Assembly (NCBI GenBank): GCA_045531455.1
Contig: JAZSEA010000075.1
Coordinates: 149,978 to 213,977, forward strand
DNA: 64,000 bases
Direction: 5' to 3'
Origin: Eubacteriales bacterium
Lineage (GTDB): Bacteria > Bacillota > Clostridia > Oscillospirales > CAG-272
Position numbers and translations under genes: made by a program. The notes under the pieces were generated by a model. The model saw nothing but the letters and a program-made list of their open reading frames with translations, did no database searches and was not told the origin of the DNA. This document shows, piece after piece, positions 41,852 through 55,456 of this stretch (positions are counted from its first letter, which is position 1; each line of letters starts with the position of its first letter).

Positions 41852-41880
41852 TTGACAAACCGTGAATGAAGGTGTATAAT
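41852..41880 (+). promoter_or_regulatory. Sigma-A-type promoter of T-box leader 1
   Basis: TTGACA (41852-41857), a 17-nt spacer, then TATAAT (41875-41880). Confidence 0.75.
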
Positions 41881-41898
41881 ATACACAATTTAATAAAA

Positions 41899-42145
41899 GG
41901 CTTTGACGAAGACGGCAAGAAAGAATGTTTTCAGAGAGTTGGCGGTAGGTGCGAGACCAACATCAGGCTTTCGATAGCCCATCACTTCCGAGCCGGGGGA
42001 CCGAAAGTTCAACGAGTAGACTCCTCCCGTGATTACTGCGTTAAGGTATAGGGCTTGCCGGAGCCTGAAGTGCCGTCATATGACGGAATTTGAGTGGTAC
42101 CGCGAATTTGATTCGTCTCAAAGATTATTCTTTGAGACGATTTTT
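41899..42145 (+). promoter_or_regulatory. T-box riboswitch leader 1, proposed specifier AUC (Ile)
   Basis: K-turn base (GGC-UUUGAC-GAAG / CUUC-CGA-GCC), AGAGAG bulge, GGUGCGA distal loop and an AGUAGA...GCGUUA F-box. Stem III spans 42072-42085 and the T-box sequence AAUUUGAGUGGUACCGCG spans 42087-42104. The terminator hairpin at 42113-42140 is followed by UUUUU. Confidence 0.88.
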
Positions 42146-42219
42146 GTTTTATTACTCAACAATCAAAATTACAAGCACCCGGAATTGTGTTATGCCTTTG
42201 CGGCAAGAAAGGATCCATT

Positions 42220-52899: not shown

Positions 52900-55424
52900 A
52901 GCTTTCCTTTTCGGTCAAAGGCTGGAACGATTATTCCTGGCTCGATTATTGCAATATAGCAAAGGAGCTTGGTTTTGAAGGAATCGAACTGCATAACAAT
53001 AAGACAGGCGCATTCAAAAGTGCGGACGATCCATTCGATCCTCAAGCAGCCTTTTCGGTAAATCGTACTCTTTATTCTATGGGACTTGCAATCCCTTGTC
53101 TCGACGTTTCTTGCAATATTGCCGCTACAGATGACAATGAAATAGCTGACAATATTGCTGAAATTGAGAATTCTATCAAGACTGCAGCAAATCTTAAGAT
53201 TCCTTACGTAAGACTTCACGCCGCAGCAATCCCCGGCAATTCCGATAAGAAAAACGCTATAGCTTTCCTCGAAAAGATTCTTCCATCTGCAGAAAGAGCG
53301 GGAATCACTATCCTCCTCGAAACGATGGGTGTATTCGCCGACACCGAAGCACTCCGTGACGTTCTTAATTATTTCGCATCCGACAGTCTCGGTGCGCTAT
53401 GGGATATGTATCACACATATTTTTCAGCAGGAGAATCTCCTTCTTCCACCATCACCAATCTCGGTGCGTACGTCAAGCACGTTCATATCAAGGATTCGCT
53501 TCACGTAGGCGATACACTTGAGTATTGTCTTATCGGTGACGGTGAGCTTCCGATCAAGGATATGATGAACAGCCTCCGTTCCGTAAATTACGACGGATTC
53601 ATAACTCTTGAGTGGGAGCCCGCATGGTTTGCAGATATAGATGACATAGAGGTTATCTACGCTCATTTCGTTAACTATATGCAGCGTATTGATAACCCTG
53701 CAAAGGCTAAAAAAGCCCTCTACAGAAACAAAGCCGGCACCGGTAAGTTCATTTGGAAGAAGGAAGCTCTCATCGACCTCACCTTCCCGAAGGTTCTCGA
53801 CGCAATGGTAGAAGAATTTCCCGACCAATATGCGTTCAAGTATACCACGCTTGATTATACAAGAACCTACTCAGAATTCAGAGACGACGTTGATAATTTC
53901 GCAAGAGCTCTTGTTGCTCTCGGCGTAAGACCCGGACATCACGTTGCTGTCTGGGCAACCAACGTTCCTCAATGGTACATCGCTTTCTGGGCAACCACAA
54001 AGATCGGAGCGGTTCTCGTGACGATGAATACAGCATACAAGATCCACGAAGCAGAATATCTGCTCCGTCAGTCCGATACACACACCCTTATTATGATCGA
54101 CGGTTGGCGTGATTCGGATTACAGCGGAATCATCAGCGAGCTTTGCCCTGAGCATATGAACACGCGCTCAGGCGATCCTCTGCACTGTAAGAGGCTGCCT
54201 TTCCTCCGTAATATCATAACCGTAGGATTCAAAAAGCCGGGATGTCTCACCTGGGAAGAAGCTCTTCTCCGCGCATCGCGCACACCTATTGAAGAAATCA
54301 ATCGTCTTGCTGCCGCAGTTTCGCCTCACGACGTCTGCAATATGCAGTACACTTCGGGCACCACAGGCTTCCCCAAGGGCGTTATGCTGACTCACTATAA
54401 CGTAGTCAACAACGGCAAGTGCATCGGTGACAGAATGGATCTTTCTACGGCAGACCGAATGATGATCCAGGTTCCGATGTTCCATTGCTTCGGAATGGTA
54501 CTTTCCATGACCGCATCAATGACTCACGGTGTAACTATCTGTCCGCTTCCCTACTTCTCACCAAAGCCTGCACTCTCCTGCATAAACAGCGAGCACATTA
54601 CCTGCTTCCACGGTGTTCCAACTATGTTTATCGCTCTCCTTCAGCATCCCGATTTTGAAAAGACCGATTTTTCGTATATGAGAACCGGTATTATGGCGGG
54701 AAGTCCGTGCCCGATCTCTGTAATGCAGGACGTTGTTGACAAGATGCATATGCCGGAGATCACGATCGTTTATGGTCAGACTGAAGCTTCTCCCGGATGC
54801 ACAATGAGTTCAACGGACGATCCGCTTGAGGTTCGAGTCGGCACTGTCGGTCGCGCACTCCCCGAGATCGAATGTAAGGTCATTGATCCCGACACGGGTG
54901 ATGAGCTACCTGACGGAGTAAACGGTGAATTTGTTGCGCGCGGATATAATATTATGAAGGGATATTACAAAATGCCCCTCGCTACCGAATCCGCGATCGA
55001 CGCAGACGGTTGGCTGCACACCGGAGACCTTGCTTGCCGCACACCTGAGGGTAATTATCGCATTACGGGACGCCTCAAGGATATGATCATCCGCGGAGGT
55101 GAAAATATCTATCCCAAGGAAATCGAGGAATTTATTTATACTCACCCCAAGGTTCAGGACGTTCAGGTTATAGGAGTGCCGGATGAGCAATACGGCGAAG
55201 AGATTATGGCTTGTGTTATCCTCAAGGAAAACGAAGAAATGACAGTTGAGGAAATGAGGGCTTACGTCAGAGATCATATGGCTCGCCACAAGGTTCCGAG
55301 ATATATCGACTTTGTCGATTCCTTCCCGATGAATGCCGCGGGAAAGATCCTCAAGTATAAGATGCGCGAAGAAGCCGTTGAAAAGCTCGGTCTGCAGAAG
55401 GCATCAAAGATTATAACCGCATAA
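52896..55424 (+). CDS. Fusion: xylose-isomerase-like TIM-barrel domain + AMP-forming acyl-CoA synthetase (FadD/YngI-like)
   Basis: The N-terminal ~270 aa carry AP-endonuclease-2/sugar-phosphate-isomerase-type motifs (GFEGIELH, LLETMG, HVHIKD, ITLEWE). The C-terminal part has YTSGTTGFPKGVMLTH, YGQTEASP, LHTGDLA and GKILKYKMRE. ATGA overlap with the LeuA-like gene. Confidence 0.85.
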   Translation: MKLSFSVKGWNDYSWLDYCNIAKELGFEGIELHNNKTGAFKSADDPFDPQAAFSVNRTLYSMGLAIPCLDVSCNIAATDDNEIADNIAEIENSIKTAANLKIPYVRLHAAAIPGNSDKKNAIAFLEKILPSAERAGITILLETMGVFADTEALRDVLNYFASDSLGALWDMYHTYFSAGESPSSTITNLGAYVKHVHIKDSLHVGDTLEYCLIGDGELPIKDMMNSLRSVNYDGFITLEWEPAWFADIDDIEVIYAHFVNYMQRIDNPAKAKKALYRNKAGTGKFIWKKEALIDLTFPKVLDAMVEEFPDQYAFKYTTLDYTRTYSEFRDDVDNFARALVALGVRPGHHVAVWATNVPQWYIAFWATTKIGAVLVTMNTAYKIHEAEYLLRQSDTHTLIMIDGWRDSDYSGIISELCPEHMNTRSGDPLHCKRLPFLRNIITVGFKKPGCLTWEEALLRASRTPIEEINRLAAAVSPHDVCNMQYTSGTTGFPKGVMLTHYNVVNNGKCIGDRMDLSTADRMMIQVPMFHCFGMVLSMTASMTHGVTICPLPYFSPKPALSCINSEHITCFHGVPTMFIALLQHPDFEKTDFSYMRTGIMAGSPCPISVMQDVVDKMHMPEITIVYGQTEASPGCTMSSTDDPLEVRVGTVGRALPEIECKVIDPDTGDELPDGVNGEFVARGYNIMKGYYKMPLATESAIDADGWLHTGDLACRTPEGNYRITGRLKDMIIRGGENIYPKEIEEFIYTHPKVQDVQVIGVPDEQYGEEIMACVILKENEEMTVEEMRAYVRDHMARHKVPRYIDFVDSFPMNAAGKILKYKMREEAVEKLGLQKASKIITA

Positions 55425-55426
55425 TT

Positions 55427-55456
55427 TTAAGGCTGTCACTTTTGTGACAGCCTTAA
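55427..55456 (+). terminator. Operon-end hairpin (13-bp stem, no clear U-tract)
   Basis: TTAAGGCTGTCAC-tttt-GTGACAGCCTTAA, 3 nt after the stop codon. Confidence 0.5.

Follow-up and report, generated by a model that had tools for sequence, protein, structure and literature searches.

A T-box-controlled gene cluster of gut Clostridia as a candidate salvage route from branched short-chain acids to isoleucine, valine and leucine

T-box riboswitches induce the genes behind them when an amino acid is scarce, a mode of control that fits the synthesis of that amino acid and not its breakdown. In DNA from Eubacteriales bacterium (CAG-272, Oscillospirales; assembly GCA_045531455.1, contig JAZSEA010000075.1, positions 149,978-213,977; this stretch of 64,000 nucleotides (nt) is called the window below), two T-box leaders precede two paralogous acyl-coenzyme A (acyl-CoA) ligases, and the second ligase is followed by a 2-oxoacid:ferredoxin oxidoreductase, a branched-chain aminotransferase (BCAT), a LeuA-like protein and a third ligase. 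The question raised by this locus is what acyl-CoA ligases and a ferredoxin-dependent oxidoreductase are doing under the control of tRNA charging. We propose that the locus probably serves the salvage of exogenous branched short-chain acids into isoleucine, valine and leucine under T-box control. The pairing of what appear to be three ligases with three cognate tRNA sensors, around a common oxidoreductase and transaminase, supports this reading. The initial annotation of the locus had put forward the order acid, acyl-CoA, 2-oxoacid and amino acid, directed by tRNA charging; a comparison of 79 loci from related genomes supports that order, and the substrates and the direction of the pathway are what we infer from it.

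T-box leaders and the genes behind them

The features of the locus, all on the plus strand and numbered by window position, are as follows.

41852-41880, plus strand: promoter P1, TTGACA-17-TATAAT, 12/12 match to consensus
41894-42150, plus strand: T-box leader 1 (Ile); specifier AUC at 41981-41983, UGGU bulge at 42095-42098, terminator at 42113-42140 with U-run
42220-44487, plus strand: lig1, PuuR-like helix-turn-helix (HTH) and cupin joined to a MacS/MbcS-type AMP-forming acyl-CoA ligase; predicted 2-methylbutyrate-CoA ligase
44531-44559, plus strand: promoter P2, TTGACA-17-TATTAT with extended -10 TG, 11/12 match to consensus
44577-44836, plus strand: T-box leader 2 (Val); specifier GUC at 44663-44665, terminator at 44796-44826 with U-run
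44848-47130, plus strand: lig2, paralog of lig1, 760 amino acids (aa); predicted isobutyrate-CoA ligase
47137-47811, plus strand: P-loop NTPase of the SIMIBI class, 224 aa, with a deviant Walker A motif, GHYGSGKT
47824-48030, plus strand: oxidoreductase delta subunit, 68 aa, 2x[4Fe-4S] ferredoxin-like; Fer4 in Pfam, weak OorD/PorD-type match in NCBIfam
48044-49102, plus strand: oxidoreductase alpha subunit, VorB subfamily; POR_N and PFOR_II domains, NF005507 (VorB) at 545 bits against a cutoff of 399
49102-49845, plus strand: oxidoreductase beta subunit, thiamine pyrophosphate (TPP)-binding; TPP_enzyme_C, with all beta-subunit models of 2-oxoacid:ferredoxin oxidoreductases (OFORs) below cutoff
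49849-50385, plus strand: oxidoreductase gamma subunit, POR domain
50407-51471, plus strand: BCAT, ilvE type II; Aminotran_4 (class IV), NF009897 at 477 bits against 307, TIGR01123 at 398 against 250
51490-52899, plus strand: LeuA-like pseudoenzyme; degenerate HMGL triosephosphate isomerase (TIM) barrel and conserved LeuA_dimer (leucine-binding regulatory) domain
52896-55424, plus strand: lig3, xylose-isomerase-like TIM barrel joined to a FadD/PRK12583-type AMP-forming ligase; predicted isovalerate-CoA ligase
55427-55456, plus strand: closing hairpin at the end of the unit, 13 bp, dG -21.7 kcal/mol, z -7.2, without a U-tract

All the elements listed in the initial annotation were recovered where it had placed them, namely a consensus promoter and a complete T-box leader ahead of each of two ligases, a 760-aa paralog behind the second leader, a downstream gene set joined by junctions of -4 to +21 nt, a catalytically degenerate LeuA paralog and a 13-bp hairpin that closes the unit. 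Promoter scanning, a search with the Rfam T-box model RF00230 and Pfam and NCBIfam hidden Markov model searches of each window protein gave the same elements and the same protein families. One detail has to be amended: the HTH, cupin and AMP-ligase domains of the first ligase stand, and the 766 aa ascribed to it are reached only from a GTG start. The ATG at 42220 is preferred because a near-identical locus with the same genes in the public assembly GCA_965337205.1 has lig1 called as 755 aa.

Both leaders are full-length matches to RF00230, a model that spans Stem I (with K-turn, AG bulge and distal loop), Stem III and the T-box sequence and for which Rfam sets the gathering score at 93 bits. 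Leader 1 (41894-42123) covers model positions 1-219 with 88.8 bits (E 5e-20), 4 bits below the gathering score, and leader 2 (44577-44808) exceeds it with 96.3 bits. Scanning and folding gave terminators of 12 bp in leader 1 and 13 bp in leader 2, each followed by a U-run. In both leaders the conserved T-box sequence GAGUGGUACCGCG overlaps the 5' arm of the terminator, and terminator and antiterminator are therefore mutually exclusive. The antiterminator bulge is UGGU in both, which would pair with the A73 discriminator carried by tRNA-Ile, tRNA-Val and tRNA-Leu.

The specifier was taken as the three bases located one base upstream of the 4-bp basal helix that closes the K-turn, with the pattern TGA-N-helix ... 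NNN-N-helix'-N-RAGY and the two helix arms required to pair. This register is set by more than 120 orthologous leaders, in which the codon follows the class of the downstream gene:

lig1-type leaders: specifier ATC in 54/57
lig2-type leaders: specifier GTA, GTC or GTT in 42/49, the remainder mostly uncalled
LeuA-like leaders: specifier CTC or CTG in 20/21 called leaders

AUC, GUA/GUC and CUC/CUG are the usual specifier choices for Ile, Val and Leu, and the Rfam alignment of one Leu leader places GAAG-C-CUC-A where it is expected. Two other readings of the codons were considered and rejected. A Phe specifier in leader 2 (the UUC preceding GUC) is not conserved among orthologs, which have GUA or GUC in register. 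A shifted register that would make the Ile leaders respond to Ser (UCA/UCC) was rejected because the same shift yields stop or mixed codons in Val and Leu leaders of like architecture. By its specifier, leader 1 is predicted to respond to tRNA-Ile and leader 2 to tRNA-Val.

The relatives of the locus were collected in a scan of one genome per species, in which at least 597 species genomes contained a confirmed ligase relative; the best 79 loci were kept, and the ten window proteins and the T-box core motif were placed on them. The HTH-cupin-ligase fusion itself is a very large family (at least 8000 clusters), and its best 120 members are all about 760 aa long with the same domains. All 79 loci come from uncultured Oscillospirales-type Clostridia of animal gut and rumen, labelled Acutalibacteraceae, Oscillospiraceae, Ruminococcus, Christensenellaceae or Faecousia. 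The order T-box, lig1, T-box, lig2, P-loop gene, delta, alpha, beta, gamma and BCAT recurs among them; the co-occurrence of T-box, HTH-cupin-ligase, OFOR and ilvE, which the initial annotation had suggested checking, is thus found across species. The T-box motif stands ahead of the lig1-type gene in 55/55 loci with enough upstream sequence, ahead of the lig2-type gene in 47/51 (of the four genes without it, two are artefacts of contig edges, leaving 47/49 as the real count) and ahead of the LeuA-like gene in 22/27. The core motif has 133 occurrences in the 1.2 Mb of these loci, nearly all of them immediately upstream of the three gene classes, an arrangement far beyond chance. Downstream of the ligase or ligases, the P-loop and oxidoreductase genes are present in 33 of the 48 loci with enough sequence, and BCAT in 22 of 40.

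All nine leaders in three loci (L011, L019 and L070) are full-length RF00230 matches with E values of 9e-14 or below. The Ile and Val leaders of these loci, together with leader 1 of the window, score 72.7-93.4 bits, mostly below the gathering score, and the Leu leaders score 110-121 bits, with six of six tested exceeding it; the range of the orthologous leaders as a whole is 72.7-120.7 bits, every match being full-length. Since so many Ile and Val scores fall short of 93 bits, annotation at the Rfam threshold would miss most of these leaders, and the regulon may have escaped threshold-based annotation for this reason.

P1 and P2 are the top two plus-strand promoter matches of the region, and the orthologous leaders are likewise preceded by a strong promoter like P1, with an A-rich tract upstream of it. 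The promoters are strong and look constitutive, so that control probably lies in the leaders. The flanking genes are unrelated, with an M23 peptidase upstream and, downstream, an open reading frame (ORF) for a small GNAT-like acetyltransferase followed by a sulfatase.

Several loci depart from the common arrangement. In L032 and L037, the only real exceptions among lig2-type genes, lig2 follows lig1 over a short spacer (at about 9900-10000) without a T-box, and the L037 spacer contains a promoter-like TTGACA...TATGAT. L067 has no lig2 and carries a T-box directly ahead of the P-loop and oxidoreductase genes (12300-12640); its specifier loop reads ...GCAUCUGCAU-CUCC, which in the usual register gives GCA or UGC and not a Val codon. 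In L044 (12520-14131) a 175-aa ORF, which resembles the cupin part of lig2 and would be a truncated form of that gene, lies between a Val (GUA) T-box and the P-loop gene. L003 (9923-17444) has a Val T-box and lig2 alone, followed by genes for a carbon-nitrogen hydrolase, dapA, dapB, diaminopimelate dehydrogenase and lysA; in that genome the oxidoreductase must be elsewhere.

Two further elements of the window were recorded. A 13-bp hairpin at 41816-41842, with an A-run and a U-run on either side, ends the M23 peptidase gene and looks like a bidirectional terminator that would insulate P1 cleanly. At 63627-63712 on the plus strand, and unrelated to the locus, is a tRNA gene with a long variable arm and the anticodon loop CU-CGA-AA, probably tRNA-Ser(CGA).

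Enzymes of the locus and their predicted substrates

Lig1 and lig2 are 64% identical and share HTH, Cupin_2, AMP-binding and AMP-binding_C domains, the AMP domains being matched in Pfam at 4.6e-65 and 2e-20. Over the whole ligase domain (residues 238-753) they match the structure of MacS (PDB 3ETC) with E values of 9e-186 for lig1 and 9e-193 for lig2, and MbcS is the best NCBIfam model for both. MacS of Methanosarcina acetivorans adenylates C3-C8 acids, prefers 2-methylbutyrate and takes this acid alone through to the CoA ester (PMC10455477), and MbcS of S. aureus activates 2-methylbutyrate and isobutyrate selectively and isovalerate poorly (PMC10026030). In an alignment with E. coli Acs, the position of the pocket-closing Trp414 is occupied by Gly in lig1, lig2 and lig3, and the alternate Trp of the AKYW motif (the MacS W259 region) is kept in lig1 and lig2; an acyl pocket enlarged by the replacement of Trp414, and the alternate Trp, have been described (PMC10455477).

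The Ile-led and Val-led ligases fall into separate orthogroups, and 93 of 95 sequences have their nearest neighbour in their own leader class. Within the ligase domain only one residue is class-specific, Gly460 in all Ile-type enzymes and Ala465 in 98% of the Val-type; it aligns with Val310 of Acs, and MacS also has Gly there. Val310 is one of the four residues known to line the acyl pocket of Acs. A pocket smaller by one methyl group in the Val-type enzymes fits isobutyrate (C4) as against 2-methylbutyrate (C5), and we predict 2-methylbutyrate as the acid substrate of lig1 and isobutyrate as that of lig2.

The alpha subunit of the oxidoreductase is the one that exceeds a curated cutoff (VorB); beta, gamma and delta stay under all of theirs. 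It is the genomic context of the oxidoreductase, with BCAT and the T-boxes, that points to branched-chain substrates. As judged from sequence, the identity of BCAT is unambiguous, and mycobacterial BCAT structures match it at E 6e-103. The P-loop gene is always located between the ligase and the delta subunit among the relatives. Its product gives a weak Pfam hit to CbiA, no hit in NCBIfam and no sequence homolog in PDB. The AlphaFold2 model has a predicted local distance difference test (pLDDT) score of 75, and Foldseek finds signal recognition particle (SRP)/FtsY proteins and ATPase-type HypB, i.e., the SIMIBI class in general. A NifH-like or Mrp-like cluster carrier was considered and rejected, as the protein has a single Cys only. 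From the fixed gene position we would guess that it might be an assembly or maturation factor of the oxidoreductase.

The Leu arm consists of the LeuA-like protein and lig3, which are adjacent in 27 of 28 loci. The LeuA-like protein has lost all three metal ligands (RDGEQ is replaced by RNNSG, and HxH, HTH in the active enzyme, by ECS; the orthologs carry other non-liganding residues there, such as K-Q-A... and SCS) and about 45 residues of the catalytic subdomain, corresponding to positions ~286-330 of the E. coli enzyme, are deleted. Its best leuA model scores 258 bits against a cutoff of 532, and every other leuA cutoff is missed as well. The LeuA_dimer domain (PF08502, 2e-30) is the best-conserved part among 22 LeuA-like orthologs. 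By these features the protein cannot be an isopropylmalate synthase. The names given to its relatives in databases are inconsistent, with '2-isopropylmalate synthase' at JGI and 'alpha-isopropylmalate synthase regulatory domain-containing protein' or 'hypothetical protein' at NCBI.

In many genomes the pair forms a separate T-box operon with a CUC or CUG specifier, frequently divergent from lig1. In the window, as in L030 and L067, it lies directly behind BCAT without a leader of its own and thus under the Val leader. Lig3 is predicted to be an isovalerate ligase on the basis of the Leu T-box of its relatives alone, and a separate ligase family for this arm agrees with the poor use of isovalerate by enzymes of MacS/MbcS type. 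The N-terminal TIM barrel of lig3 matches PF01261 (AP_endonuc_2) at 108 bits against 31 and has weak relatives only in PDB (Art22 and MJ1311). The window protein has the metal ligands E142, D170, H197 and E239. A conserved catalytic role of this domain seems doubtful because it evolves faster than the ligase part (44% against 76% identity among orthologs) and because 9-12 of 30 orthologs, about one third, carry other residues in place of E142, D170 and E239.

In two loci, L046 (~1990-2329) and L026 (~2510-2842), a consensus promoter and a leader of about 250 nt stand ahead of the LeuA-like gene. The leader ends in a GC-rich hairpin and a U-run, lacks the T-box motif and is not matched by Rfam. 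In L046 it includes an ORF of 20 codons, five of them for Leu (MNGNACSFTLLLSAILRLTK), and this ORF might serve as a leader-peptide attenuator in place of a T-box.

The proposed salvage route and other explanations

Taken together, the leaders and enzymes suggest the following route. Uncharged tRNA-Ile would pair with AUC and UGGU of leader 1 and stabilize the antiterminator over the terminator at 42113-42140, so that lig1 is expressed and could convert 2-methylbutyrate to 2-methylbutyryl-CoA. Uncharged tRNA-Val would act in the same way at the GUC of leader 2 and release lig2 and nine downstream genes, and lig2 would form isobutyryl-CoA from isobutyrate. Lig3 and the LeuA-like protein would make up the isovalerate/leucine arm, which has its own Leu T-box in most relatives and the Val leader in the window. 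The ligases would commit the acids to CoA esters at the cost of ATP, the delta-alpha-beta-gamma oxidoreductase would carboxylate the acyl-CoAs reductively to 2-oxoacids with reduced ferredoxin, and BCAT would transaminate these to Ile, Val and Leu. AMP-forming ligases drive the conversion of acid to acyl-CoA. We favor the synthetic direction, and with it the carboxylating direction of the oxidoreductase, because T-boxes induce at starvation and AMP-forming ligases are irreversible.

A number of observations weigh against this route. Lig1 (446 bits) and lig2 (438 bits) miss the MbcS equivalog cutoff of 850, and by sequence they appear to be MbcS relatives, not MbcS equivalogs. The beta and delta subunits match 2-oxoglutarate-type models best, all below cutoff, and the PDB relatives of the oxidoreductase are generic 2-keto acid and 2-oxoglutarate OFORs. 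The ligase family of lig3 has no known isovalerate enzyme. Four conserved parts (the P-loop protein, the HTH-cupin module, the pseudo-LeuA and the TIM domain) have no assigned role, and the roles suggested for them here are putative. T-box-led ligases occur without an adjacent oxidoreductase in 15 of 48 loci. The wiring of the window is a further difficulty. Its oxidoreductase and BCAT genes lie only behind the Val leader, lig1 and P2 are not separated by a terminator, and limitation for Ile alone would accordingly not obviously raise their expression; likewise, the Leu arm has no Leu leader and would answer to Val, not Leu. These points would fall into place if the terminators were read through at a basal level, or if the three amino acids often became limiting together.

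It is conceivable that the ligases supply branched acyl-CoA primers for membrane fatty acids, the T-boxes serving as a proxy for a shortage of primers derived from amino acids. The best-matching family, MbcS, has a demonstrated role of this kind in S. aureus (PMC10026030). The 15 loci just mentioned, with neither oxidoreductase nor BCAT beside the T-box-led ligase, would suit such a function, and because acyl-CoA is a branch point, the salvage and primer fates can coexist. Amino-acid-specific T-boxes and the co-transcription of ligase, oxidoreductase and BCAT are hard to square with a lipid primer, however; a catabolic BCAT and oxidoreductase expressed under starvation would waste the scarce amino acid, and no fab genes are found within the unit. 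We consider primer supply unlikely as the function of the locus. The same regulation might also be combined with other acids, e.g., propionate converted to 2-oxobutyrate for Ile, or short acids that feed the ilv and leu pathways, with an oxidoreductase that is broad or of 2-oxoglutarate/pyruvate type. The weak preference of beta and delta for 2-oxoglutarate-type models and the C3-C8 range of adenylation by MacS agree with this, but MacS finishes the reaction with 2-methylbutyrate only (PMC10455477), and the alpha subunit exceeds the VorB cutoff. The larger pocket predicted for the Ile-type enzymes (Gly) and the smaller one for the Val-type (Ala) are the opposite of what propionate versus isobutyrate would require. 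BCAT is the only amino-acid-forming enzyme of the unit, from which ilvBCD and leuBCD are absent, and other acids as the main substrates seem quite improbable to us.

The third explanation reverses the flow: in a catabolic operon, BCAT and the oxidoreductase would oxidize Ile, Val and Leu to acyl-CoAs, and the ligases would run backwards to conserve ATP. BCAT and 2-oxoacid:ferredoxin oxidoreductases are indeed reversible and are used by gut clostridia for the production of branched acids. Induction by lack of the amino acid would have the wrong sign for such an operon, AMP-forming ligases normally activate acids, and fermenters are known to use phosphotransacylase/kinase pairs or ADP-forming synthetases at this step; moreover, three substrate-matched pairs of T-box and ligase would make no sense at the exit of a pathway. 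We regard the catabolic explanation as highly improbable, and salvage of branched acids into the three amino acids remains the reading we prefer.

Within the salvage route there is room for a second tier of control, at the protein level. The N-terminal module of lig1 and lig2 gives HTH_3/HTH_19/HTH_31 and Cupin_2 hits, and its residues ~9-192 (the modules lie at 42220-42800 and 44848-45450 in the window) correspond from end to end to free-standing proteins of 183-190 aa, which themselves match the PuuR model weakly over its full length. The linker between the module and the ligase is poorly conserved. Of 14 positions that discriminate Ile-type from Val-type proteins, 12 lie in the HTH-cupin module and 1 in the 520-aa ligase domain (binomial p ~4e-6 against a uniform spread). 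The twelve fall between residues 46 and 133 and are, in the order Ile-type/Val-type, Y/C46, H/Y59, K/R60, L/I73, A/P78, T/I94, E/A97, I/M100, I/Y102, K/R112, Y/L117 and H/E133. A conserved palindrome or operator was not found when 118 promoter regions were aligned on the -35 box and inspected by eye and by positional information content; beyond the -35 and extended -10 boxes they share only a UP-like A-tract, and a target elsewhere is possible. As a tentative idea, two controls tied to its own end product may act on each arm, one by way of tRNA charging and the other by way of a sensor or pseudoenzyme. The HTH-cupin module would then be a class-specific sensor of Ile/Val, or of the acids, that throttles its ligase, or the fusion could be a BirA-like ligase-repressor; the dead LeuA paralog would be the equivalent sensor for lig3 through its leucine-binding regulatory domain. 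Support for this two-tier control comes from the concentration of the discriminating residues in the HTH-cupin module and from the regulatory domain being the part that the LeuA-like proteins conserve best.

Relation to known systems and to the biology of rumen and gut bacteria

The T-boxes, the enzyme families and the physiology of the pathway are known already. T-box-controlled biosynthesis operons of Firmicutes, such as ilv-leu of B. subtilis with its Leu specifier and the leuA T-boxes, belong to the same riboswitch family and have the same terminator/antiterminator switch and the same supply logic. In contrast to them, the window places acyl-CoA ligases, a ferredoxin-dependent oxidoreductase and a dead LeuA under this control, and not ilv/leu enzymes, tRNA synthetases or transporters. 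A census of T-box targets contains no acyl-CoA or ferredoxin terms (PMC2494555).

Lig1 and lig2 resemble MacS (3ETC) and MbcS over the whole ligase domain, including Gly at the Acs W414 position and the AKYW Trp, and the reference enzymes prefer alpha-branched C4/C5 acids. They differ from both in having an N-terminal PuuR-like HTH-cupin module, about 200 aa long and joined by a variable linker, in the split into Ile-led and Val-led forms and in the T-boxes; MbcS, unlike the proposed salvage ligases, serves lipid synthesis. The module has the architecture of stand-alone PuuR-type regulators of about 185 aa, and its fusion to an adenylate-forming enzyme resembles BirA by analogy only; unlike in BirA and PuuR systems, no operator is seen in or near the conserved promoters. 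The oxidoreductase is similar to the anabolic 2-oxoisovalerate oxidoreductase (VOR) of methanogens and to OorDABC-type enzymes in its four subunits, delta-alpha-beta-gamma order, TPP and [4Fe-4S] cofactors and VorB-passing alpha subunit, and differs from them in being preceded by a conserved SIMIBI P-loop protein.

The closest physiological counterpart is reductive carboxylation in the rumen, which has the same chemistry, substrates, habitat and bacterial group as we predict for the window. Allison and co-workers reportedly followed the carboxylation of branched acids by rumen bacteria in physiological tracer studies of the 1960s-70s. According to references collected in PMC7356843, rumen bacteria including ruminococci make Leu, Ile and Val by carboxylating isovalerate, 2-methylbutyrate and isobutyrate respectively, and ruminococci need these acids as growth factors. 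In the searchable open-access literature we found no gene cluster or regulation assigned to this rumen pathway, and no prior description of the combination of T-box, acyl-CoA ligase and ferredoxin oxidoreductase, although an earlier mention elsewhere is possible. What appears to be new is a three-armed T-box regulon in which each ligase is matched to the tRNA of its amino acid, the oxidoreductase and BCAT are shared, and sensor-like modules are attached.

We propose the locus as the first gene-level candidate for the classic rumen pathway. It offers candidate genes and a candidate mode of regulation for the conversion of isobutyrate, 2-methylbutyrate and isovalerate to Val, Ile and Leu, known from tracers since the 1960s. 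This conversion is the reason why fibre-degrading ruminococci require isoacids and why isoacids are added to feed. Relatives in at least 597 species genomes make the cluster a widespread one, and it predicts which ligase serves which amino acid. A large reconstruction of amino acid synthesis in the gut microbiome does not consider a salvage route of this kind (PMC9026213); because of that omission, and because one pipeline names the dead LeuA '2-isopropylmalate synthase', genomes that carry the cluster may be mis-scored in either direction. For riboswitch biology, as well as for rumen and gut microbiology, the locus would extend the T-box regulon to acyl-CoA ligases and a ferredoxin-dependent oxidoreductase.

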